A DNA stretch of 64,000 nt from Methanotrichaceae archaeon (GCA_963748825.1 CAVVKN010000012.1:95536-159535); one strand, 5' to 3'. Shown: positions 11,820 through 55,805, counted from the first letter of the stretch. Program-made: numbers and translations. Notes: a model not told the origin generated them from the letters alone.

Positions 11820-12371
11820 TTATAGGATTCCTATTTTACTCTTGATCATTCGTATATCATTCTCTATCCGGGCCTGCCACTCGATATTATTATGGACAGC
11901 CAGGTCATCCCGCAGGCCCCTTATTTCATCGATCGTCTCCTTTTGTCCTTCCAGCAATGTCCTTTGCCCATCTACCAGAGATTTCGCATTCTCTCTCGTG
12001 CCTTTCATATCGCCTTTTAGTTCCTTCAGATCATCTCTTATATCGATGAGAACGGGAATTGCTTTGTCAAGCTGAATCGTTGTACAAAACTGGGCATATT
12101 CGCCCACCCTCATGACATCTCCTTCGTAAGTACCTACTACAATCCTGGATACAGCGGCCCGGTTCGGTCTTTTTTCCTGTGCCAGCTTCCTGAAGGCATT
12201 GACTTCTTTCTCGCCGCCATCGACCAAGACCATTACTTGTTGTTCCTGCTCGTCCTCGACGTTATGGGCCTCAAACATCTTGATGCGACTTGCCATTGCT
12301 TTGTTCATCAGAAAGTACCTATAGCCTACGTCGTGGACTTTGGGGCCGGAGATGGTAATTTGGAGCTTCAT
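11820..12371 (-). CDS. Acylphosphatase-domain protein with C-terminal coiled coil
   Basis: ISGPKVHDVGYRYF acylphosphatase-like motif; paralog at 53230-53793. Confidence 0.8.
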   Translation of the reverse strand: MKLQITISGPKVHDVGYRYFLMNKAMASRIKMFEAHNVEDEQEQQVMVLVDGGEKEVNAFRKLAQEKRPNRAAVSRIVVGTYEGDVMRVGEYAQFCTTIQLDKAIPVLIDIRDDLKELKGDMKGTRENAKSLVDGQRTLLEGQKETIDEIRGLRDDLAVHNNIEWQARIENDIRMIKSKIGIL

Positions 12372-12571
12372 AATTAATCTATTATGTGCACTTGGACCTA
12401 GAAAAGCATTTTGGATAACGAGTATGCCTGCGATATCATTTTGCTTGTGGCACCAAAAGGCAGCATGGAAAACTGCCGGGTCCACATAACCAGCCGCTGG
12501 GCTATTGTCTCAGGGTGAAAGGAAGGCGCCTCGCTGATTTGCATGGCAATCGATTACGTCCCTGGGATCGG

Positions 12572-12608
12572 GTTGCAATTCTTGTTTTTTTGGAACTGGA
12601 AAAAATAT
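12572..12608 (-). repeat. Solitary degenerate CRISPR repeat outside the array
   Basis: 12572-12597 matches the first 26 nt of the repeat at 23/26 positions; the remainder is diverged. Confidence 0.6.
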
Positions 12609-12721
12609 CTATTTTATCGGCTTTTCTCCTCTTGCTTGCGCTTTTTGCCTTCGAGCCTCTTGTTTCTCTTTCTTTTTGTTCACCGTCGCCGTGCTCGGTG
12701 CATCCTTTTTAAATAAGTTGA

Positions 12722-13054
12722 TCATGATTGCTCCCTCGCATACCTCACGATTAATGTGATATCATAGGATCTGCTCATATTAATTTGTTCGCATACGAAA
12801 AAATGCTTAACGCTGTCTAGAAAAGCATCTAACTCCTTGGTTCCGGCAACTCGCGTTCCCTGACATCGTTTGTACTGCACCCAGGCTATATCTGCACCCT
12901 CCGGGAGGGCTCTGGTTTTCTTCTTTGTTTCTTCTCCCGCAGATGTAATAGTTTCCTTCACCGTGCCAGCCATTGGAGAGATAGGTGGTGAGCTTCGGAT
13001 AACTGGATTGGCGATAGTCTGAACGGCGGCGGGCTGTTCATTGTCGCGTTTCAA
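12722..13054 (-). CDS. Hypothetical protein downstream of the array trailer
   Basis: 110-aa ORF, no recognisable motif; annotated start lies inside the terminal repeat, so the true start may be internal (MAGTVKE). Confidence 0.3.
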   Translation of the reverse strand: MKRDNEQPAAVQTIANPVIRSSPPISPMAGTVKETITSAGEETKKKTRALPEGADIAWVQYKRCQGTRVAGTKELDAFLDSVKHFFVCEQINMSRSYDITLIVRYAREQS

Positions 13055-13199
13055 AACTTGTTCTTCATGGAAATGGCCATTGTACGTGGCCGACCAGGCG
13101 TTCCCGGTCGTACCTGTGGAGTTTCAATCCTTGTTTTCATGGAACTCGCCCTCGGACTCTGGTTCATCCTGGGCAATGCCCTTGCAGCCTTGGGGTTTC

Positions 13200-14664
13200 C
13201 CATGGAAAACCACACGAAACCAAAATCAGGAGGCGATCTATTCACCACCCCCAGATGGCCTTTTCTGGCCGACCTTGATCTCAGAAATGTCTGCGATCTC
13301 ACGCATGAGAGCATTCTTCCGGCTGCTCTCTTTCAGGTGATAAAAGGCATCCACAATTGCAGCGACCCGATCCGTTAAATGCTCTTCCTGAAATGAAGGT
13401 GCATGGCAGGGCTTATCCTGACTCGATCCCCTCTTTCTGCATTCACCTTCCAGATACAACTCCTGGTTGATCAGAAGATGATAAATGAGACAGATGAGTT
13501 TCCTGGCCACGGCAACAATCGCAACATTACGCTCCTTCTTTTTTATCAATCTCTGGAAGAATCTGGACAGCGCCGTCTTTTTCATATTTGATATGGTCTG
13601 CGCTGCTTGGACAAGTATAACTCTGATGTGCTTGGAACCCCTCTTTGTAATTCCACATTTTTTCTTCTTGCCTGCAGATTCGTTTTCTCCGGGATTGAGG
13701 CCACACCATTTTGCGAGCTGGTCCGGAGTCTTAAAATCACGGTAGTTCCCAATCTCCGACAGTATGACCGATGCAGATGTGAATCCAATTCCAGGGATCG
13801 ACATGACTATGGCCAGATCTTTGCTCTTTTGCTGAACTCCTTTCAGAACCTCAAGGCTTAGCTTCTCCATTTTGGATTCGAGATTGTCAAGGATTTCCAG
13901 AGCATCTATTAAGAGCATTCTGCTTGTATCGTTAAGACCATTTTCAAGTGCTGATCTAATCAGGTCTTGCTTCTTCCTTATCTTTCCGGAGGGTATGCCT
14001 TTCAAGATCTCTTCGATGGGCTTATTTTTAGCAAGACAGTTCAGGATGTATCTGCCGGACTTGCAGAAAATATCGTCCATGGTAGAACTGAGCTTAACCC
14101 CGCTTGATGATAGATATTTATGAATCCGATTCCTGAACTGAGTTCGTGTCTTGACATATCCGGACCTGGCTCGGGTCATCATCCTAAGGTCTCGGTCCTC
14201 ATCGGTAAATACGCGAGATCTTTTGATTTGACCGTTCAAGCAAAGGGTTGCGATTCGGTTTGAGTCTTTAGAGTCGGATTTGTCATTTGGAACGGTCTTT
14301 ATCTGCAACGGATTGGCTACAATTGTATCTATGGTTTTGCTCAGAGCATCATAAATCGGCATCCAATAGACACCAGTAGCTTCAAATGCCACTTGTTCGC
14401 ATTTGTTGGCAACCAGCCAGTTGCGGAATCTCTTAAGCTCGGCTTTTGTTGTCCCAAAATTCTCTCGAATTGTCGGTACATCATCGCCTGTTATTGTGGC
14501 AACGATCAGATCTTTATGGACATCTGCTCCGCAAACTCTATCTCTTCGTTTGTTCATACACGTCTCTGCCTGATATGGGCAGATGATCTTTCCCTGAGAT
14601 GGGATAATTTCCCATACGCGTTCCACGACGCAGTCCCGTATTCGGGGGGATCTTGGCCTGTTTC
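13200..14664 (-). mobile_element. IS110-family element copy 1; non-coding end truncated at internal GTTTC and fused to copy 2
   Basis: Starts CCATGGAAAACCAC right after spacer-GTTTC (13195-13199); matches copy 2 up to ggcctGTTTC (14660-14664) and lacks the last 130 bp. Confidence 0.93.
13238..14557 (-). CDS. IS110-family transposase/recombinase, 439 aa
   Basis: RuvC-like DEDD: GADVHKD, AFEATG, KSDSKDS; Tnp20 domain SIPGIG, GLNPGENESAG, AIVAVARKL; start at MNKRRD. Confidence 0.95.
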   Translation of the reverse strand: MNKRRDRVCGADVHKDLIVATITGDDVPTIRENFGTTKAELKRFRNWLVANKCEQVAFEATGVYWMPIYDALSKTIDTIVANPLQIKTVPNDKSDSKDSNRIATLCLNGQIKRSRVFTDEDRDLRMMTRARSGYVKTRTQFRNRIHKYLSSSGVKLSSTMDDIFCKSGRYILNCLAKNKPIEEILKGIPSGKIRKKQDLIRSALENGLNDTSRMLLIDALEILDNLESKMEKLSLEVLKGVQQKSKDLAIVMSIPGIGFTSASVILSEIGNYRDFKTPDQLAKWCGLNPGENESAGKKKKCGITKRGSKHIRVILVQAAQTISNMKKTALSRFFQRLIKKKERNVAIVAVARKLICLIYHLLINQELYLEGECRKRGSSQDKPCHAPSFQEEHLTDRVAAIVDAFYHLKESSRKNALMREIADISEIKVGQKRPSGGGE

Positions 14665-14702
14665 CCATGGAAAACCACACGAAACCAAAATCAGGAGGCG
14701 AT

Positions 14703-16022
14703 CTATTCACCACCCCCAGATGGCCTTTTCTGGCCGACCTTGATCTCAGAAATGTCTGCGATCTCACGCATGAGAGCATTCTTCCGGCTGCTCTCTTTCA
14801 GGTGATAAAAGGCATCCACAATTGCAGCGACCCGATCCGTTAAATGCTCTTCCTGAAATGAAGGTGCATGGCAGGGCTTATCCTGACTCGATCCCCTCTT
14901 TCTGCATTCACCTTCCAGATACAACTCCTGGTTGATCAGAAGATGATAAATGAGACAGATGAGTTTCCTGGCCACGGCAACAATCGCAACATTACGCTCC
15001 TTCTTTTTTATCAATCTCTGGAAGAATCTGGACAGCGCCGTCTTTTTCATATTTGATATGGTCTGCGCTGCTTGGACAAGTATAACTCTGATGTGCTTGG
15101 AACCCCTCTTTGTAATTCCACATTTTTTCTTCTTGCCTGCAGATTCGTTTTCTCCGGGATTGAGGCCACACCATTTTGCGAGCTGGTCCGGAGTCTTAAA
15201 ATCACGGTAGTTCCCAATCTCCGACAGTATGACCGATGCAGATGTGAATCCAATTCCAGGGATCGACATGACTATGGCCAGATCTTTGCTCTTTTGCTGA
15301 ACTCCTTTCAGAACCTCAAGGCTTAGCTTCTCCATTTTGGATTCGAGATTGTCAAGGATTTCCAGAGCATCTATTAAGAGCATTCTGCTTGTATCGTTAA
15401 GACCATTTTCAAGTGCTGATCTAATCAGGTCTTGCTTCTTCCTTATCTTTCCGGAGGGTATGCCTTTCAAGATCTCTTCGATGGGCTTATTTTTAGCAAG
15501 ACAGTTCAGGATGTATCTGCCGGACTTGCAGAAAATATCGTCCATGGTAGAACTGAGCTTAACCCCGCTTGATGATAGATATTTATGAATCCGATTCCTG
15601 AACTGAGTTCGTGTCTTGACATATCCGGACCTGGCTCGGGTCATCATCCTAAGGTCTCGGTCCTCATCGGTAAATACGCGAGATCTTTTGATTTGACCGT
15701 TCAAGCAAAGGGTTGCGATTCGGTTTGAGTCTTTAGAGTCGGATTTGTCATTTGGAACGGTCTTTATCTGCAACGGATTGGCTACAATTGTATCTATGGT
15801 TTTGCTCAGAGCATCATAAATCGGCATCCAATAGACACCAGTAGCTTCAAATGCCACTTGTTCGCATTTGTTGGCAACCAGCCAGTTGCGGAATCTCTTA
15901 AGCTCGGCTTTTGTTGTCCCAAAATTCTCTCGAATTGTCGGTACATCATCGCCTGTTATTGTGGCAACGATCAGATCTTTATGGACATCTGCTCCGCAAA
16001 CTCTATCTCTTCGTTTGTTCAT
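14703..16022 (-). CDS. IS110-family transposase/recombinase, 439 aa
   Basis: Same protein as copy 1 (LKRFRNW allele). Confidence 0.95.
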   Translation of the reverse strand: MNKRRDRVCGADVHKDLIVATITGDDVPTIRENFGTTKAELKRFRNWLVANKCEQVAFEATGVYWMPIYDALSKTIDTIVANPLQIKTVPNDKSDSKDSNRIATLCLNGQIKRSRVFTDEDRDLRMMTRARSGYVKTRTQFRNRIHKYLSSSGVKLSSTMDDIFCKSGRYILNCLAKNKPIEEILKGIPSGKIRKKQDLIRSALENGLNDTSRMLLIDALEILDNLESKMEKLSLEVLKGVQQKSKDLAIVMSIPGIGFTSASVILSEIGNYRDFKTPDQLAKWCGLNPGENESAGKKKKCGITKRGSKHIRVILVQAAQTISNMKKTALSRFFQRLIKKKERNVAIVAVARKLICLIYHLLINQELYLEGECRKRGSSQDKPCHAPSFQEEHLTDRVAAIVDAFYHLKESSRKNALMREIADISEIKVGQKRPSGGGE

Positions 16023-16254
16023 ACACGTCTCTGCCTGATATGGGCAGATGATCTTTCCCTGAGATGGGATAATTTCCCATACGCGTTCCACGACGCAGTC
16101 CCGTATTCGGGGGGATCTTGGCCTGTTTCAATCGCGGGATCAAACGTCCTATAAACTTGTCGGCCTTCACTGCCCATATCCGGCTTAACGTGAACGGATA
16201 ACAATATGTGGTTTTCCATCCGTCACGTGTGAGCCCCTGCCTGGGCTCATGGGC
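16023..16254 (-). ncRNA. Putative bridge RNA in the IS110 non-coding end (copy 2)
   Basis: Hairpins at 16230-16249 and 16188-16228; 11-bp stem 16170-16180/16037-16047 enclosing GATTGAAAC (repeat match, 16125-16133) and ATGGGAAA (donor match, 16073-16080); RNA boundaries unknown. Confidence 0.72.
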
Positions 16255-16961
16255 GTTTCAATCCTTGTTTTTGTGGAACTCGCCCTCGGACCTATATTAT
16301 AGTAATGACTACTATAAGTAAAAATCCGATGTTTCAATCCTTGTTTTTGTGGAACTCGCCCTCGGACCCATCTATGCCCAGGAATATATTCGATGTCTTT
16401 GAGTTTCAATCCTTGTTTTTGTGGAACTCGCCCTCGGACATTCCCACCTTCGAAATAGACCGAGCGTTTGAGATTGCGTTTCAATCCTTGTTTTTGTGGA
16501 ACTCGCCCTCGGACCGACATAATCACCAAGACCGCCCCAATTGACGGCCTGTTTCAATCCTTGTTTTTGTGGAACTCGCCCTCGGACATTGATTACTTGT
16601 TTCATGTTCATTACCTCCCTGCTAGTTTCAATCCTTGTTTTTGTGGAACTCGCCCTCGGACTCCAAGCGATTGCCTCTGGAGAAGTTAGATCGAATTGTT
16701 TCAATCCTTGTTTTTGTGGAACTCGCCCTCGGACCGCAACAGGTGACGACCTTTCCAGCAAAGTTGAAGCTGGTTTCAATCCTTGTTTTTGTGGAACTCG
16801 CCCTCGGACTGGGACACGGCGCTGGTTCTGATGCCGATCTCGTATAGTTTCAATCCTTGTTTTTGTGGAACTCGCCCTCGGACTATAATTTTGGATTCGT
16901 CATTCATGCATCCTCACGGTTTCCCATGGAAAACCACACGAAACCAAAATCAGGAGGCGAT

Positions 16962-18281
16962 CTATTCACCACCCCCAGATGGCCTTTTCTGGCCGACCTT
17001 GATCTCAGAAATGTCTGCGATCTCACGCATGAGAGCATTCTTCCGGCTGCTCTCTTTCAGGTGATAAAAGGCATCCACAATTGCAGCGACCCGATCCGTT
17101 AAATGCTCTTCCTGAAATGAAGGTGCATGGCAGGGCTTATCCTGACTCGATCCCCTCTTTCTGCATTCACCTTCCAGATACAACTCCTGGTTGATCAGAA
17201 GATGATAAATGAGACAGATGAGTTTCCTGGCCACGGCAACAATCGCAACATTACGCTCCTTCTTTTTTATCAATCTCTGGAAGAATCTGGACAGCGCCGT
17301 CTTTTTCATATTTGATATGGTCTGCGCTGCTTGGACAAGTATAACTCTGATGTGCTTGGAACCCCTCTTTGTAATTCCACATTTTTTCTTCTTGCCTGCA
17401 GATTCGTTTTCTCCGGGATTGAGGCCACACCATTTTGCGAGCTGGTCCGGAGTCTTAAAATCACGGTAGTTCCCAATCTCCGACAGTATGACCGATGCAG
17501 ATGTGAATCCAATTCCAGGGATCGACATGACTATGGCCAGATCTTTGCTCTTTTGCTGAACTCCTTTCAGAACCTCAAGGCTTAGCTTCTCCATTTTGGA
17601 TTCGAGATTGTCAAGGATTTCCAGAGCATCTATTAAGAGCATTCTGCTTGTATCGTTAAGACCATTTTCAAGTGCTGATCTAATCAGGTCTTGCTTCTTC
17701 CTTATCTTTCCGGAGGGTATGCCTTTCAAGATCTCTTCGATGGGCTTATTTTTAGCAAGACAGTTCAGGATGTATCTGCCGGACTTGCAGAAAATATCGT
17801 CCATGGTAGAACTGAGCTTAACCCCGCTTGATGATAGATATTTATGAATCCGATTCCTGAACTGAGTTCGTGTCTTGACATATCCGGACCTGGCTCGGGT
17901 CATCATCCTAAGGTCTCGGTCCTCATCGGTAAATACGCGAGATCTTTTGATTTGACCGTTCAAGCAAAGGGTTGCGATTCGGTTTGAGTCTTTAGAGTCG
18001 GATTTGTCATTTGGAACGGTCTTTATCTGCAACGGATTGGCTACAATTGTATCTATGGTTTTGCTCAGAGCATCATAAATCGGCATCCAATAGACACCAG
18101 TAGCTTCAAATGCCACTTGTTCGCATTTGTTGGCAACCAGCCAGTTGAGGAATCTCTTAAGCTCGGCTTTTGTTGTCCCAAAATTCTCTCGAATTGTCGG
18201 TACATCATCGCCTGTTATTGTGGCAACGATCAGATCTTTATGGACATCTGCTCCGCAAACTCTATCTCTTCGTTTGTTCAT
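16962..18281 (-). CDS. IS110-family transposase/recombinase, 439 aa
   Basis: As copies 1/2 except R>L substitution (LKRFLNW). Confidence 0.95.
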   Translation of the reverse strand: MNKRRDRVCGADVHKDLIVATITGDDVPTIRENFGTTKAELKRFLNWLVANKCEQVAFEATGVYWMPIYDALSKTIDTIVANPLQIKTVPNDKSDSKDSNRIATLCLNGQIKRSRVFTDEDRDLRMMTRARSGYVKTRTQFRNRIHKYLSSSGVKLSSTMDDIFCKSGRYILNCLAKNKPIEEILKGIPSGKIRKKQDLIRSALENGLNDTSRMLLIDALEILDNLESKMEKLSLEVLKGVQQKSKDLAIVMSIPGIGFTSASVILSEIGNYRDFKTPDQLAKWCGLNPGENESAGKKKKCGITKRGSKHIRVILVQAAQTISNMKKTALSRFFQRLIKKKERNVAIVAVARKLICLIYHLLINQELYLEGECRKRGSSQDKPCHAPSFQEEHLTDRVAAIVDAFYHLKESSRKNALMREIADISEIKVGQKRPSGGGE

Positions 18282-18513
18282 ACACGTCTCTGCCTGATAT
18301 GGGCAGATGATCTTTCCCTGAGATGGGATAATTTCCCATACGCGTTCCACGACGCAGTCCCGTATTCGGGGGGATCTTGGCCTGTTTCAATCGCGGGATC
18401 AAACGTCCTATAAACTTGTCGGCCTTCACTGCCCATATCCGGCTTAACGTGAACGGATAACAATATGTGGTTTTCCATCCGTCACGTGTGAGCCCCTGCC
18501 TGGGCTCATGGGC
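18282..18513 (-). ncRNA. Putative bridge RNA (copy 3)
   Basis: Same sequence as 16023-16254. Confidence 0.7.
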
Positions 18514-18702
18514 GTTTCAATCCTTGTTTTTGTGGAACTCGCCCTCGGACCACTGCCATCAAGTTCTAATGGGACCAATTCAATTTTGTTTCAATCCTTG
18601 TTTTTGTGGAACTCGCCCTCGGACATATTAGGTGATTTTCATGAAACTATGTATTATATGTTTCCCATGGAAAACCACACGAAACCAAAATCAGGAGGCG
18701 AT

Positions 18703-20022
18703 CTATTCACCACCCCCAGATGGCCTTTTCTGGCCGACCTTGATCTCAGAAATGTCTGCGATCTCACGCATGAGAGCATTCTTCCGGCTGCTCTCTTTCA
18801 GGTGATAAAAGGCATCCACAATTGCAGCGACCCGATCCGTTAAATGCTCTTCCTGAAATGAAGGTGCATGGCAGGGCTTATCCTGACTCGATCCCCTCTT
18901 TCTGCATTCACCTTCCAGATACAACTCCTGGTTGATCAGAAGATGATAAATGAGACAGATGAGTTTCCTGGCCACGGCAACAATCGCAACATTACGCTCC
19001 TTCTTTTTTATCAATCTCTGGAAGAATCTGGACAGCGCCGTCTTTTTCATATTTGATATGGTCTGCGCTGCTTGGACAAGTATAACTCTGATGTGCTTGG
19101 AACCCCTCTTTGTAATTCCACATTTTTTCTTCTTGCCTGCAGATTCGTTTTCTCCGGGATTGAGGCCACACCATTTTGCGAGCTGGTCCGGAGTCTTAAA
19201 ATCACGGTAGTTCCCAATCTCCGACAGTATGACCGATGCAGATGTGAATCCAATTCCAGGGATCGACATGACTATGGCCAGATCTTTGCTCTTTTGCTGA
19301 ACTCCTTTCAGAACCTCAAGGCTTAGCTTCTCCATTTTGGATTCGAGATTGTCAAGGATTTCCAGAGCATCTATTAAGAGCATTCTGCTTGTATCGTTAA
19401 GACCATTTTCAAGTGCTGATCTAATCAGGTCTTGCTTCTTCCTTATCTTTCCGGAGGGTATGCCTTTCAAGATCTCTTCGATGGGCTTATTTTTAGCAAG
19501 ACAGTTCAGGATGTATCTGCCGGACTTGCAGAAAATATCGTCCATGGTAGAACTGAGCTTAACCCCGCTTGATGATAGATATTTATGAATCCGATTCCTG
19601 AACTGAGTTCGTGTCTTGACATATCCGGACCTGGCTCGGGTCATCATCCTAAGGTCTCGGTCCTCATCGGTAAATACGCGAGATCTTTTGATTTGACCGT
19701 TCAAGCAAAGGGTTGCGATTCGGTTTGAGTCTTTAGAGTCGGATTTGTCATTTGGAACGGTCTTTATCTGCAACGGATTGGCTACAATTGTATCTATGGT
19801 TTTGCTCAGAGCATCATAAATCGGCATCCAATAGACACCAGTAGCTTCAAATGCCACTTGTTCGCATTTGTTGGCAACCAGCCAGTTGAGGAATCTCTTA
19901 AGCTCGGCTTTTGTTGTCCCAAAATTCTCTCGAATTGTCGGTACATCATCGCCTGTTATTGTGGCAACGATCAGATCTTTATGGACATCTGCTCCGCAAA
20001 CTCTATCTCTTCGTTTGTTCAT
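18703..20022 (-). CDS. IS110-family transposase/recombinase, 439 aa
   Basis: Same protein as copy 3 (LKRFLNW allele). Confidence 0.95.
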   Translation of the reverse strand: MNKRRDRVCGADVHKDLIVATITGDDVPTIRENFGTTKAELKRFLNWLVANKCEQVAFEATGVYWMPIYDALSKTIDTIVANPLQIKTVPNDKSDSKDSNRIATLCLNGQIKRSRVFTDEDRDLRMMTRARSGYVKTRTQFRNRIHKYLSSSGVKLSSTMDDIFCKSGRYILNCLAKNKPIEEILKGIPSGKIRKKQDLIRSALENGLNDTSRMLLIDALEILDNLESKMEKLSLEVLKGVQQKSKDLAIVMSIPGIGFTSASVILSEIGNYRDFKTPDQLAKWCGLNPGENESAGKKKKCGITKRGSKHIRVILVQAAQTISNMKKTALSRFFQRLIKKKERNVAIVAVARKLICLIYHLLINQELYLEGECRKRGSSQDKPCHAPSFQEEHLTDRVAAIVDAFYHLKESSRKNALMREIADISEIKVGQKRPSGGGE

Positions 20023-20254
20023 ACACGTCTCTGCCTGATATGGGCAGATGATCTTTCCCTGAGATGGGATAATTTCCCATACGCGTTCCACGACGCAGTC
20101 CCGTATTCGGGGGGATCTTGGCCTGTTTCAATCGCGGGATCAAACGTCCTATAAACTTGTCGGCCTTCACTGCCCATATCCGGCTTAACGTGAACGGATA
20201 ACAATATGTGGTTTTCCATCCGTCACGTGTGAGCCCCTGCCTGGGCTCATGGGC
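20023..20254 (-). ncRNA. Putative bridge RNA (copy 4)
   Basis: Same sequence as 16023-16254. Confidence 0.7.
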
Positions 20255-23200
20255 GTTTCAATCCTTGTTTTTGTGGAACTCGCCCTCGGACTTCTTATCC
20301 ATCCAAGAAGCTGCCCGCCAAGGCTCTGTTTCAATCCTTGTTTTTGTGGAACTCGCCCTCGGACAATCGCATAATGGCGGAAAACGCGGCAATCCTGGGT
20401 TTCAATCCTTGTTTTTGTGGAACTCGCCCTCGGACTCCTCAGTGCATTGCATCAGCTTCCAAGCCTTTCCAGTTTCAATCCTTGTTTTTGTGGAACTCGC
20501 CCTCGGACCCGCGATGCTAGCCAAGCTCTCTGATATGATTATCTGGGTTTCAATCCTTGTTTTTGTGGAACTCGCCCTCGGACTTTTGGACTAACTGCTC
20601 CGATAAATCTCCTATAGAAGTTTCAATCCTTGTTTTTGTGGAACTCGCCCTCGGACGGCGGGAAAGTCGGCTGCCGGCATGGGCGATTTTGATGTTTCAA
20701 TCCTTGTTTTTGTGGAACTCGCCCTCGGACCGGAGTAAGAGATTCGCGGTTATCAAATCCCAAACAGTTTCAATCCTTGTTTTTGTGGAACTCGCCCTCG
20801 GACTTGGGGTTGGTCATGGGGAATGCAGCTCTTGGGGGAGTTTCAATCCTTGTTTTTGTGGAACTCGCCCTCGGACAAGATAGATGAGGTTTGAGCATGA
20901 GAGGCACACTGCGTTTCAATCCTTGTTTTTGTGGAACTCGCCCTCGGACTGCGGTCTCAAACGCCAGGCCGAGCCTGGTTGATGTGTTTCAATCCTTGTT
21001 TTTGTGGAACTCGCCCTCGGACAACAAGAAGTAGCCGATGCAGTCAAAGTATATGCGGGTTTCAATCCTTGTTTTTGTGGAACTCGCCCTCGGACCCAAC
21101 CAGATTAGACCATTGGTGTCCATAATTTGCAGTTTCAATCCTTGTTTTTGTGGAACTCGCCCTCGGACATCTAGATGATGCAGATTACCAGAGCCGGATT
21201 TAACCAGTTTCAATCCTTGTTTTTGTGGAACTCGCCCTCGGACCTGTTTTGCAAGCCCGAAGATGGCGGCGCGGATGGAGTGGTTTCAATCCTTGTTTTT
21301 GTGGAACTCGCCCTCGGACGTACTTTTCTGTCCTGAAGATCGTGCGCATGCGATAGTTTCAATCCTTGTTTTTGTGGAACTCGCCCTCGGACCACAATTA
21401 TCCAGAACGGTGTCTCCTTCGTTGGTAGTTTCAATCCTTGTTTTTGTGGAACTCGCCCTCGGACAAAGATATGATGCTCAGATCAAAGACCTATTACATA
21501 GTTTCAATCCTTGTTTTTGTGGAACTCGCCCTCGGACTTGTCATATCTTCCAAGCATATTCCAACGTTCTTGATGTTTCAATCCTTGTTTTTGTGGAACT
21601 CGCCCTCGGACTACGAGCGGCACCGTTGGAGATACCTTCTATATATGTTTCAATCCTTGTTTTTGTGGAACTCGCCCTCGGACAGCAAAAAGGACTTGCA
21701 ACAAGCGGAACTATTAGAGTTTCAATCCTTGTTTTTGTGGAACTCGCCCTCGGACACTCCCGCAATCGCTTCACAAATTCCGGCCATTCTCAGAGTTTCA
21801 ATCCTTGTTTTTGTGGAACTCGCCCTCGGACTGTAGATGCTCAGATGGCATGATCTCATAGGTTGTGACAGTTTCAATCCTTGTTTTTGTGGAACTCGCC
21901 CTCGGACGCTGGAGCCTCGTATTGGCATCACACGAACTCATCGTTTCAATCCTTGTTTTTGTGGAACTCGCCCTCGGACTATCCGCAGTGCCATTTATGG
22001 CAGTCTCGTATCAGGGTTTCAATCCTTGTTTTTGTGGAACTCGCCCTCGGACTTCATGCCGAACCGCTATAGCCCATGAACATCCTAAGTTTCAATCCTT
22101 GTTTTTGTGGAACTCGCCCTCGGACAAGGAATCTTCCCGTGCATTCGCAGTGATTAGGATGTTTCAATCCTTGTTTTTGTGGAACTCGCCCTCGGACTGC
22201 GAACTGGTCAGAAGAAAGAAGAACATCGTTTGTGTTTCAATCCTTGTTTTTGTGGAACTCGCCCTCGGACGTTACTCTTACGGCATCCAGTCCCGGTATT
22301 TGGGGGTTTCAATCCTTGTTTTTGTGGAACTCGCCCTCGGACGGTCGAAACATCGGGGCTCCAAGATTGCAGAAGATGTTTCAATCCTTGTTTTTGTGGA
22401 ACTCGCCCTCGGACATTATATCGCAGCTTGATCCCTCAGCTAGAAGTAATGGTTTCAATCCTTGTTTTTGTGGAACTCGCCCTCGGACTAGCTATCTGGA
22501 TGAATTGAATCAGTACGTATCTGAGTTTCAATCCTTGTTTTTGTGGAACTCGCCCTCGGACACTCAGCACACACCCACACAGACGACGGGATAGATCGTT
22601 TCAATCCTTGTTTTTGTGGAACTCGCCCTCGGACACATAACCCTATTACCCGTGATCGGTTATAGTTGGCGTTTCAATCCTTGTTTTTGTGGAACTCGCC
22701 CTCGGACGCAATTTACCTCTCGCGTCCATCTTAGCATGGAACGGTTTCAATCCTTGTTTTTGTGGAACTCGCCCTCGGACGCTGATTGCGGCGCGTGGTT
22801 CATGATTAGGTGATCAGTTTCAATCCTTGTTTTTGTGGAACTCGCCCTCGGACTGTCATGCCATAGCATCTATGATCTGTCATCGAGTCAGGTTTCAATC
22901 CTTGTTTTTGTGGAACTCGCCCTCGGACGCTGGCATGAGTTCTCGATGGCATGGGGGTAGGTAAGTTTCAATCCTTGTTTTTGTGGAACTCGCCCTCGGA
23001 CCTATCAGAAGGGGCCGGGTGGTTGGGGATACTGGCAGTTTCAATCCTTGTTTTTGTGGAACTCGCCCTCGGACTCTGTTTTCAGATATGCCTTATTGGT
23101 ACATTCGTTAGTTTCAATCCTTGTTTTTGTGGAACTCGCCCTCGGACGTGAGACACAGTCGATGCAACTGTATCTTGAGACAAACTGTTTCAATCCTTGT

Positions 23201-23370
23201 TTTTGTGGAACTCGCCCTCGGACCTTGGAATAAGCAGAGATCGAACGATTGATGGAGGAAGTTTCAATCCTTGTTTTTGTGGAACTCGCCCTCGGACAGC
23301 ATTTGCGGAAAAGACAGGCAACAGAAATATCTGGTTTCAATCCTTGTTTTTGTGGAACTCGCCCTCGGAC

Positions 23371-23529
23371 AGCGGCTTTTTTTCGTCCTTTTCCCCGTTT
23401 CTCAGTGTCAAACCGGCCTTTTCTCACCCTCCTCAAAGCATTAGAGGAATTTATTAGATGGCTTATAAATTCATTCCGGCAGGTGGGCCCGAAAATAGGC
23501 TCGCTGGCCCAAAAACGGATGGCGCATCT
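23371..23529 (-). promoter_or_regulatory. CRISPR leader
   Basis: Non-coding region between the cas6 stop and the first repeat; A/G-rich on the minus strand with TATA-like ATTTATAA at ~23463-23470. Confidence 0.75.
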
Positions 23530-24186
23530 CTATTTCAGTTTTGTAACCGCCCCGTAACCTCTGGAGACTGACTTGCCCAGCCCCAGGAAGTCCGGGATGG
23601 CAAAGGTTGTGGTGAACTCTCCTCGTATCCCCGTGACTTTTGTCCCCTTCAGCAGGCAGATCTCATCCTGCATCCCGCCCACCTCCAGCCGAATGTGCTC
23701 TTTGGCCACGTAGCCCAGCCCCTTGGAGGCGGAGAGGATGTTGCCCACCAGGATTCTTCTCAGCAGATCCTTTCTTTCCTCTCTGTTTGCATTTAAATAT
23801 TTGGGGTAGTTGTCCTGGCTAAGTGCCAGCCAGGGCGTGGCAAAACTGTAGCTTTGGATCTTTTCGCAGCATCCGAACTCCTCGCTCTTCAGGGTAATGC
23901 CGCGCTCCATGATGCTGTACTTGCTCTCTCCCAATTTTATCTCATCGAATTTATCATAGATCTCTTTCAGGACCTCTGCCCCCTCGTTGATGCCAAGGAC
24001 CAGGGGACTTCCCTCCAGCATCTTGTACTGGATGAGAGGATATTTGTAGATCAGCTTGTCCGTCACATGCTGGTGCAGCAGCGCATGCTCATTGAAGCTG
24101 GTGGCAAAGAAGCCGCGCAGCTTCGATGCGTCCCCGTGCATGGGCGCGTCCGAGTGCAGGGTGAGGCGGAGGATTTTGAGGATCAT
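23530..24186 (-). CDS. cas6: CRISPR endoribonuclease Cas6 (Cas6b-like)
   Basis: KLRGFF...LLHQH...YKYPLIQYK and C-terminal G-rich loop GLGKSVSRGYG. Confidence 0.92.
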   Translation of the reverse strand: MILKILRLTLHSDAPMHGDASKLRGFFATSFNEHALLHQHVTDKLIYKYPLIQYKMLEGSPLVLGINEGAEVLKEIYDKFDEIKLGESKYSIMERGITLKSEEFGCCEKIQSYSFATPWLALSQDNYPKYLNANREERKDLLRRILVGNILSASKGLGYVAKEHIRLEVGGMQDEICLLKGTKVTGIRGEFTTTFAIPDFLGLGKSVSRGYGAVTKLK

Positions 24187-30755: not shown

Positions 30756-31409
30756 TCAAACGCATATATTCCTGTACGTGCAGTCCACGCACCTGGCCTT
30801 CTGCTTCGTCCCATCGGGAAAGTATCCCCTCTGAATTATCATCAGTATCTCGCGCACAATCTCCTTCGCCTTCTCATAATCTTTTTGCTGAAAGTCTATT
30901 TCCGCCACATAATTGTTGCTCCTGGTGTAGCAGACAAAGCCCCGCTTCACATCCACGCCGAAGTGCTCCATGATGAGCAGCCCGTAAAGTGCCGCCTGAA
31001 ACTTGTGCGTCCTGTAAATGGTGTTTTTAAACTCGGCATACTTGTAATCCAGAGGTGCAGCCGTTCCATCTTCCAGAAAGAGAACCTCATCCACCTCTCC
31101 CTTGAAGTGGTACTTGTGCGAAGTCAGATAAACCGAGATCTCTTTTCCCGTGCAATTCAGCTTCTTTCTCACGTAATCCCGGTTCACCTTCTCCCGGATC
31201 TCGTGCAGCTCTCTGCCCTTCAAAACCTTGAAGCGCCGCTCCTCTCTCTGGGCGATGCCCAGGCAGTGCATGAAAAATATGAACCTGGGGCAGAACAGGT
31301 ACTCCAGCGCATCGGATACCGTGACGAAAATCTCCTGCGCGGGTGCGGGCTCTCGCGCGCCCTCCTGCGCCTGCCCGCGCGTGGCCGCTGTATCATCATC
31401 TGTCTCCAT
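30756..31409 (-). CDS. cas4: Cas4 exonuclease
   Basis: YLFCPR, GEVDEV...PLDYKY, C-terminal CVDCTYRNIC Fe-S cysteines. Confidence 0.92.
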   Translation of the reverse strand: METDDDTAATRGQAQEGAREPAPAQEIFVTVSDALEYLFCPRFIFFMHCLGIAQREERRFKVLKGRELHEIREKVNRDYVRKKLNCTGKEISVYLTSHKYHFKGEVDEVLFLEDGTAAPLDYKYAEFKNTIYRTHKFQAALYGLLIMEHFGVDVKRGFVCYTRSNNYVAEIDFQQKDYEKAKEIVREILMIIQRGYFPDGTKQKARCVDCTYRNICV

Positions 31410-31654
31410 TTTGCCCTCAGAACACCTTGGTTAACATCATGCCCGCCACCAGTTCTCGGTCGAATCCCGTTCCGATCAGCTTGATCTTATCAAAGCAGTC
31501 CTCGCACATGGGAAAGACGTAGACTGAATCAGACTCCTCGATGACCGCCTCGCACTCCAGGGCCAGGGAGTCGGACTGATTCCGGTTCAGATCGCCCAGA
31601 AAGGCGCTCTTCTGCACCCGGAACAGGCCGTATCTCTTACAGAGCTTCGCTACC
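31265..31654 (-). repeat. Diverged ~390-bp direct repeat, copy A (cas2 3' part + cas4 5' part)
   Basis: Aligns with 32350-32739 at offset 1085 with scattered substitutions. Confidence 0.9.
31417..31654 (-). pseudogene. cas2: 5'-truncated cas2 duplicate
   Basis: [18 protein letters not shown]...MLTKVF but lacks the N-terminal VIYDIS strand. Confidence 0.85.
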
Positions 31655-32349: not shown

Positions 32350-32801
<452 letters not shown>

Positions 32802-32828
32802 TTATTATTCTTTTCCAGTTGTTAGTTA

Positions 32829-32914
32829 GTCGCTCTGTGCGTACTCTGTGAACTCTGTGTCTCTGTGGTGGAAACGTCGTTAGACGCTGGTTATAACCAA
32901 TGGCTGACGATACT
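32829..32914. repeat. REP/MITE-like element between cas1 and cas2
   Basis: ~85 bp similar to the reverse complement of 55677-55761; 9-nt-period ctctgtg units. Confidence 0.7.
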
Positions 32915-55632: not shown

Positions 55633-55761
55633 CCTCTGTGCGTCCTTCGTGCACTCCGTGTCTGCAGTGGTGATCGTATCGTCAGCCGTTTGTTTAACCC
55701 GCGGCTAACGACGTTTTCAACCACAGAGCTCACAGAGTTCACAGAGTACGCACAGAGCGAC
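55633..55761. repeat. Palindromic REP/MITE-like element
   Basis: Left arm ctctgtgcgtcc...gtggt imperfectly complementary to right arm accacagag...cgcacagag; homologous to 32829-32914. Confidence 0.7.
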
Positions 55762-55805
55762 GAACTAGCAACTCGAGAGCCAAAAGAAAGGAGAGAAGGT
55801 TGGAA

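Follow-up and report, generated by a model that had tools for sequence, protein, structure and literature searches.

Hiraizumi et al. 2024 is reportedly among the studies of IS621 and IS110-group bridge-RNA elements. In this group, a recombinase with DEDD and Tnp domains is combined with a structured RNA from the left end of the element, upstream of the gene (Durrant et al., 2024; PMC11208160). In that study, IS621 has a 9-nt left-target guide, a short right-target guide, and a core that is present at both ends after insertion. The left-target guide (LTG) is described there as reading like the target top strand over 8-9 nt, and it is placed on the 5' side of the loop.

Recent preprints concern the rearrangements of such elements. 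Xie et al. (2026; bioRxiv 10.64898/2026.08.31.748434) report that IS621 recombines with one arm plus the core, and Hu et al. (2026; bioRxiv 10.64898/2026.08.14.744561) that tandem repeat units retain almost only LD matches. The two preprints describe 437 tandem module duplications and internal endpoints that recur; the published coordinates in Hu et al. cover 5,813 partial circles and 437 + 468 tandem cases. A preprint by Sun et al. reports that a right-end/new-target junction is formed in a bridge-RNA-dependent manner. Published biochemistry permits both one-armed matches (Xie et al.) and transfer from LD to a new target (Sun et al.).

Other parallels exist as well. ISPpu9, also of the IS110 family, is reported to form circles from alternative pairs of internal and terminal boundaries and to carry sub-modules in tandem; there the alternative boundaries are not guide-coding sequence but end boxes present in duplicate (A/A', B/B'), which surround a separate small-RNA module (PMC12288879). 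CRISPR-associated transposons are RNA-guided elements whose own guide-coding spacer DNA is recognised as a target, resulting in self-insertion, but the account of them describes Cascade/Cas12k and Tn7-like machinery, unlike the element studied here (PMC12765450). CRISPR systems are described as discriminating self from non-self by a PAM or by the repeat, whereas no such filter is apparent in our element.

Here we describe two adjoining copies of an IS110-group element in a 64,000-nucleotide stretch of DNA from a Methanotrichaceae archaeon, referred to below as the window. Like the units of Xie et al. and Hu et al., the arrangement is a partial-module tandem with one boundary at a canonical right end (LD) and the other without a right-donor match. 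In the text of the preprints, where only donor matches are scored, the other boundary is "yet to be defined"; here it coincides with the DNA encoding the element's own left-target guide, a target-loop match. We found no statement of guide-coding DNA as an IS110 recombination site in the main texts of both preprints or in a full-text literature search. Partial tandem units with a right-end match only are known, and the guide gene as the second boundary is apparently new, in the sense that we did not find it in print.

The element and its copies in the CRISPR array

The host genome is a 25-contig MAG of the Methanothrix type. Four element copies were found, all in the older part of a CRISPR array.

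13121-23370, minus strand: CRISPR array with a 37-nt repeat (55 repeat copies found)
13195-13199, minus strand: GTTTC (GAAAC in element orientation), the repeat-side pentamer at the right junction of copy 1, with a spacer before it
13200-14664, minus strand: copy 1, truncated, element positions 131-1595, 1,465 bp (100% by BLAST)
13238-14557, minus strand: transposase gene of copy 1, intact, 439 aa from ATG, same protein as copy 2
14665-16259, minus strand: copy 2, full element, 1,595 bp with one GAAAC counted
14703-16022, minus strand: transposase gene of copy 2, DEDD_Tnp_IS110 and Transposase_20 (domain search)
16130-16259, minus strand: the left-end 130 bp (element positions 1-130) that is missing from copy 1
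16924-18518, minus strand: copy 3, full, in a separate repeat, other allele (one base)
18665-20259, minus strand: copy 4, full, in a separate repeat, identical to copy 3

Read on its crRNA-sense (minus) strand, each repeat terminates in ...AAGGATTGAAAC, and the degenerate terminal repeat of the array is the one at 13121. The Rfam family CRISPR-DR7 gave 55 minus-strand matches with scores of 35.3-36 bits, slightly below the gathering score of 37. The high-coordinate end of the array adjoins the type I-B genes cas6b, cas3, cas5, cas7, cas8b/TM1802, cas4 and cas1, which lie on the same strand. Two further repeats were noted in the window, a 300-nt direct repeat (94%) in the cas4/cas1 region (31265-31564 and 32350-32649) and a 63-nt inverted repeat (83%) with arms 22.9 kb apart (32797-32859 and 55731-55793).

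Judged from its sequence, the element is an IS110-family, IS110-group (bridge-RNA) insertion sequence. Its transposase matches PF01548 (E = 1.3e-21, residues 9-150) and PF02371 (E = 5.3e-26, residues 250-331), and relatives of the transposase come from Methanothrix/Methanotrichaceae MAGs. Whole or partial matches to the element were present in 69 of the 105 genomes of the family. The genome also holds, on contig C5, one more full copy with 93% identity and, on C23, a left-end fragment of 317 bp. Copies 3 and 4 are the same and differ from copy 2 by a single base (window position 15889, C versus A), which changes Arg to Leu in the transposase.

The tandem junction

14660-14669, minus strand: tandem junction GTTTC|CCATG, breakpoint 14664|14665

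Copy 1 terminates in ...atcttggcctGTTTC (14660-14664), and CCATGGaaaacc starts immediately at 14665. In a full copy, ggcctGTTTC (16125-16129) is followed by AATCgcggga..., and the repeat's GTTTC|AATCCTTG is reached 130 bases on (16255 onward). The first-pass annotation had claimed that copy 1 stops at the guide site and is fused directly to the CCATGG end of copy 2, that the remaining 130 bp of copy 1 are absent, that both copies share an allele, and that the breakpoint is the one used in the CRISPR repeats. Our analysis agrees on each point: the fusion lies at 14664|14665; a BLAST search of the whole genome with the 1,595-bp copy 2 returned three copies at full length and a fourth that measures exactly 1,465 bp (100%); direct comparison of copy 1 with the first 1,465 bases of copy 2 gave 0 differences; and the three array repeats occupied by the element are all split at the identical point, GTTTC|AATCC.

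In element orientation, the junction consists of the right end ...TTTTCCATGG-GAAAC-AGGCCAAG..., that is, of the right end ...CCATGG, followed by GAAAC and AGGCC, where the right part is the DNA just past the guide-coding 9-mer. The boundary pair joins a canonical right end plus core to a site that is unlike the right donor, with adjacent units on the same strand; CCATGGGAAAC|AGGCC has no right-donor match, and the left end of the element begins with GCCCATG. Each breakpoint is one defined base of about 1,595, so that the combination is far from chance.

The fusion also generates an open frame of 513 aa (13238-14779), which runs from an ATG at 14779, in the 3' part of the copy 2 transposase, into the copy 1 transposase. 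This fused frame is probably a side effect of the fusion rather than a gene.

The bridge RNA and its guides

16034-16187, minus strand: predicted bridge-RNA domain, element positions ~73-226 (fold and consensus of 15 relatives)
16125-16133, minus strand: DNA coding for the left-target guide, GATTGAAAC, element positions 127-135 (covariation with own flank)
16153-16159, minus strand: CAAGUUU, tentative candidate for the right-target guide, 5' side of the loop; GUUU pairs with target AAAC
14608-14615, minus strand: candidate left-donor guide AUGGGAAA, kept in copy 1; equals right end plus core ATGGGAAA

The left end comprises 237 nt before the gene, on the same strand, and is predicted to fold with an MFE of -86.4 kcal/mol (z -4.06). 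The predicted parts of the bridge RNA are a long outer stem, an internal loop for target binding that is closed by GGCC/GGCC, and a region on the donor side. In the consensus fold of 15 relatives there are 30 pairs, mostly invariant, with compensatory changes in 2; of the closing stem it retains only the three invariant GGC/GCC pairs, and it places an inner hairpin within the loop. Inspected by eye, the loop-closing stem is GGCY/RGCC, with a fourth pair that is C-G in the window, U-A in relative L012 and A-U in L022. An Rfam scan of positions 12000-24000 found no bridge-RNA family, only CRISPR-DR7 and one chance miRNA match. A scan for sigma-70 promoters gave 0 sites, a result that is irrelevant because the host is archaeal.

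Within the left end, GTTTCAATC (plus strand), which is GATTGAAAC in element orientation, is identical to the CRISPR repeat end. The corresponding LTG in the RNA reads GAUUGAAAC, in the same sense as the left half of the target plus core. We took left ends with their flanks from relatives of 95% down to ~70% identity. From 26 anchor hits, L029, L030 and L046 were dropped since the contig or locus end cut one side, which left 23 distinct insertions. The guide 9-mer differs between lineages and falls into six classes (GATTGAAAC, TCCCTAAAC, GGCTAAAAC, GTTTAAAAC, TGCGGAAAC and GACAAAAAC). When this 9-mer, which is located just 5' of the loop-closing stem, was compared with the left flank of its own insertion, the match was 9/9 in 11 cases, 8/9 in 7, 7/9 in 2 and 6/9 in 3 (n = 23). 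Over the six positions upstream of the shared AAC, the mean match to the own flank was 5.13/6, versus 2.16/6 in 314 cross-class pairs. The identification of the internal 9-mer as the left-target guide is well supported by this covariation with the left flank across six guide classes, the defining test for such a guide, and the earlier suggestion that the internal site encodes the target guide is borne out.

Evidence for the remaining guides is uneven. In two other classes, over the few loci compared, the segment proposed as right-target guide can pair with the core and right flank (7 of 8 in one, 7 nt in the other); in the window's class it pairs only via GUUU:AAAC. The candidate left-donor guide AUGGGAAA matches the right end plus core of the element at 8/8 positions and is present in 12 of 15 aligned relatives, with AUAGGAAU in two and AUGUGAAA in one, an invariance that leaves no covariation signal. 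No right-donor guide (RDG) was found in the left-end RNA. We considered AUAUGGGCAG for this role and rejected it, as it does not covary with the start of the left end and pairs with CUGCCCAUAU in a conserved stem.

A second left-end hairpin carries the loop AUGGAAAACCACA (element positions 40-52, window 16208-16220), which is exactly complementary to 13 bases at the right end (element positions 1581-1593, window 14667-14679), 2 bases inside the right end. This complementarity might reflect an inverted repeat in sub-terminal position, or a contact between RNA and DNA.

The element resembles the IS621/IS110 group as described (PMC11208160) in its DEDD plus Tnp-domain recombinase, in the predicted structured RNA from the left end upstream of the gene, and, compared with IS621, in its 9-nt left-target guide, its short candidate right-target guide and the core at both ends after insertion. 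Unlike IS621 as documented there, it has an archaeal host, and its core lies in AAA instead of CT. In the predicted fold its long sense guide occupies the 3' side of the loop, and Durrant et al. describe this guide on the 5' side; the apparent difference is one of sub-architecture, which is no criterion for family membership. The loop geometry here is either not that of IS621 or not fully understood, which counts against the explanation that we prefer below.

Target requirements and crossover position

The natural target of the element consists of the last 8-9 bases of CRISPR repeats, with an essentially free right half, unlike what is described for IS621. In insertions outside CRISPR arrays only (G)ATTGAAAC is common on the left, and past GAAA(C/T/A) no sequence is shared among the right flanks of 16 junctions. 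These comparisons show that about 8-9 bases (ATTGAAAC) suffice as a target, and support the first-pass proposal that recognition does not need the rest of the repeat. Since the LTG is sense-identical to the left half of the target plus core, the DNA encoding it is a perfect target half-site. Moreover, as the right half of the target is unconstrained beyond AAAC, the guide-coding DNA with AGGCC behind it makes a target no less complete than a repeat.

Variant bases at the junctions place the crossover. Left junctions retain the variant first base of the target (CAAAC on C5; AAAAC on C23 and in L033), and right junctions retain the G of the element together with the last base of the target (GAAAT in L001, L003 and L016; GAAAA in L010), indicating that the crossover occurs inside AAA.

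The genome contains 81 perfect guide 9-mers, namely 55 in array repeats (3 of them occupied), 5 in guide-coding DNA, 4 in 23S rRNA genes and 17 elsewhere. With 5 of the 81 being internal guide sites, a self-hit is not improbable. A repeated GATTGAAAC context on C5, C7, C10 and C18, considered as a second guide gene, turned out to be the 23S rRNA gene. Each of its four copies (C5:3028, C7, C10, C18) has a perfect GATTGAAAC, and none is occupied.

CRISPR arrays as a habitat

Relatives of the element lie inside CRISPR arrays in at least 5 genomes (3 repeats in G000, at least 2 each in G075 and G035, 1 each in G078 and G053). The array-resident relatives (loci including L003/L014, L017, L025 and L045) are always in crRNA direction. 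The guide of the element corresponds to the conserved last 8-9 bases of CRISPR repeats (ATTGAAAC), and so the element colonises arrays in several Methanothrix-type genomes. Speculatively, the guide RNA could be supplied by read-through of the array and trimmed by the Cas6b cut 8 nt before the repeat end. The Sulfolobus protein Cbp1, which binds CRISPR repeats, is reported to bind also copies of the IS110-family element ISC1229 (PMC10883916). By analogy, CRISPR-repeat-like sequence in IS110 elements may reflect the same guide/target mimicry as here.

We also observed gene-less mini-elements of ~95-100 bp (L038, L040), which consist of the first ~50 left-end bases and the last ~15 right-end bases. 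They sit at ...ATTGAAAC sites in many Methanotrichaceae genomes (many 49-nt matches) and are without target guide.

The junction in other genomes and in public sequencing runs

Public runs were compared with region 14300-15000 as assembled contigs, and a contig was counted as bridging when it had at least 31 letters on each side of the junction. In run X3, from marine sediment and a different study, a Logan contig of 227 nt (record 10) spans 14520-14745, with 145 and 81 nt around the junction. Its alignment shows 19 differences and 2 gaps, and the interval 14574-14679 is free of the differences listed for it. A variant of ~91% identity therefore carries the same junction, be it within a tandem or within a 1,465-bp circle. 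Record 21 of run X4 covers 14635-14745 with only 30 letters to the left of the junction and was not counted as bridging. In run X1, which contained the largest share of the sampled words (0.85), no contig bridges the junction, which is no evidence either way, since contigs drop rare forms. The right-end flank in X1 is absent from this genome, so X1 is probably not the source sample.

A search for the exact junction pattern in two assembled collections gave 0 matches in genome contigs and 0 in metagenome contigs. The pattern of right end, core and post-guide stem had 3 hits in the 105 family genomes, which are mostly fragmented, with no second case among them; two hits outside G000 were chance matches in ordinary DNA outside any element.

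We considered a fragment that ends exactly at the guide core (G024:C99) as a reciprocal product, that is, a solo 135-bp left end. It was ruled out, as the empty site in G026 shows that the right flank is not the original target, and what comes next is one end of an unrelated repeated element that also occurs elsewhere. A decayed relative, L006 (G068:C68), has a 66-bp deletion (element positions 137-202 by BLAST) directly after GATTGAAAC, which ends after a right-end-like GGGAAA(C/G). This deletion may be a second rearrangement at the guide site, or slippage between GAAAC repeats.

Origin of the junction

We infer that the recombinase made the junction by pairing the right end of the element with its own guide-coding DNA, an explanation that we regard as quite probable; the routes set out below are inferred likewise. 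The bridge RNA would be encoded in the 237-nt left end, and the LTG-coding DNA would double as a target half-site. The recombinase-RNA complex would pair the right end (ATGGGAAA, matched by the donor guide) with the internal guide site, and strand exchange inside the AAA core would yield the junction right end-GAAAC-AGGCC.... A 1,465-bp tandem unit without the target-binding half of the guide gene would be the outcome. The tandem junction corresponds to the right-end/new-target product expected from the RNA loops on the right end and the own guide DNA. This supports the earlier proposal that the DNA encoding the guide is itself a target, the junction being what recombination there would give. 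Several points weigh against this explanation. The 5-nt identity at the junction (GAAAC) is usable also by recombinase-independent slippage, and in the assembled contigs from which the structure was read, two 135-bp units could have been reduced to one. Further points are the right-donor guide that was looked for and not found, the donor guide that shows no covariation, and the lack of a second case of the junction in the 105 mostly fragmented family genomes.

Several routes could lead to this product. Unequal exchange between sister copies, or one-ended direct transfer, could move the right junction onto the internal site. The internal site and the right junction could give rise to a partial circle of 1,465 bp, which then re-enters a full copy. 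A full circle could insert in nested fashion, followed by loss of the 135-bp direct repeat. Finally, a partial circle could enter a repeat first, and a full copy could then enter the same left junction, still a valid target given that the right half goes unread. These four routes are not separable from sequence, and both nested insertion with collapse and the 1,465-bp circle, as the first-pass annotation had envisaged, are possible. The allele common to copies 1 and 2 fits a local origin under all four.

Nested self-insertion of a full circle into resident guide-coding DNA, with the 135-bp direct repeat later lost by homologous recombination, has the advantage that it would require only a canonical full-donor insertion and a common type of deletion, at an internal site that is a 9/9 target. 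Against this, two steps are required, and the left junction of the intermediate (internal guide plus start of the left end) was found in 0 of the 105 family genomes and nowhere in this genome. One-step routes that need a match at the right end alone agree with what the 2026 preprints report on tandem units. We therefore consider nested insertion unlikely.

An artefact of assembly, in which near-identical 1.6-kb repeats were mis-joined or collapsed while the real locus holds a single copy or two full copies, has to be weighed because the locus was read from assembled contigs of a 25-contig MAG and has four copies of at least 99.9% identity within 7 kb. However, a collapse is not expected to break exactly at the last base of the element and exactly after the 9-mer guide, the allele pattern is coherent (copies 1 and 2 the same, copies 3 and 4 the same), and the independent contig from the other study has the same junction in the ~91% identical variant, all of which makes an artefact very improbable.

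Least likely of all is a recombinase-independent tandem duplication by slippage or microhomology-mediated repair between GAAAC pentamers 1,465 bp apart: five identical bases are indeed present at both breakpoints, and the 66-bp deletion in L006, possibly due to slippage between GAAAC repeats, starts right after the same GAAAC, but the 1.6 kb contain many other 5-nt repeats while the pair used is the element terminus and the guide site, this junction is met again in a diverged variant from another sample, and the crossover position is that of natural insertions.

Consequences for the element

The nature of the product may bear on its survival. A tandem junction of right end and left end would be a full donor site and hence probably unstable, and the lack of the right-donor half in the observed junction may have allowed it to persist. 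The loss of element positions 1-130 removes the target-binding half of the guide gene, in line with the first-pass statement that the guide RNA of copy 1 is disabled. The further first-pass idea of a built-in copy-number brake is not supported: the transposase of copy 1 is intact, and within 6 kb there are three guide genes, all intact, that could act in trans. As the guide-coding site of copy 2 is intact, the structure can grow further and need not stop.

Tools for programmable genome writing are being developed from bridge recombinases, and how these enzymes act off target and rearrange DNA is a subject of active study. If guide-coding DNA is a substrate, constructs with a guide gene beside the donor would be prone to self-rearrangement, and there would be a simple predictive rule for the recurrent internal endpoints of natural partial circles. 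Natural elements would then have to tolerate or exploit this instability.

A wider reading, which we put forward tentatively and which is rather doubtful at present, is that bridge-RNA elements have no self/non-self filter and that a target half-site is present inside the guide gene of every element. If this were true, lineages with a short right guide would carry a full target in the guide gene, and self-recombination would be a general source of partial circles, of right-end-only tandem units and of recurrent internal endpoints across IS110. The left junction of any insertion would likewise stay a valid target, and the evolution of bridge-RNA elements would be subject to a structural limit.
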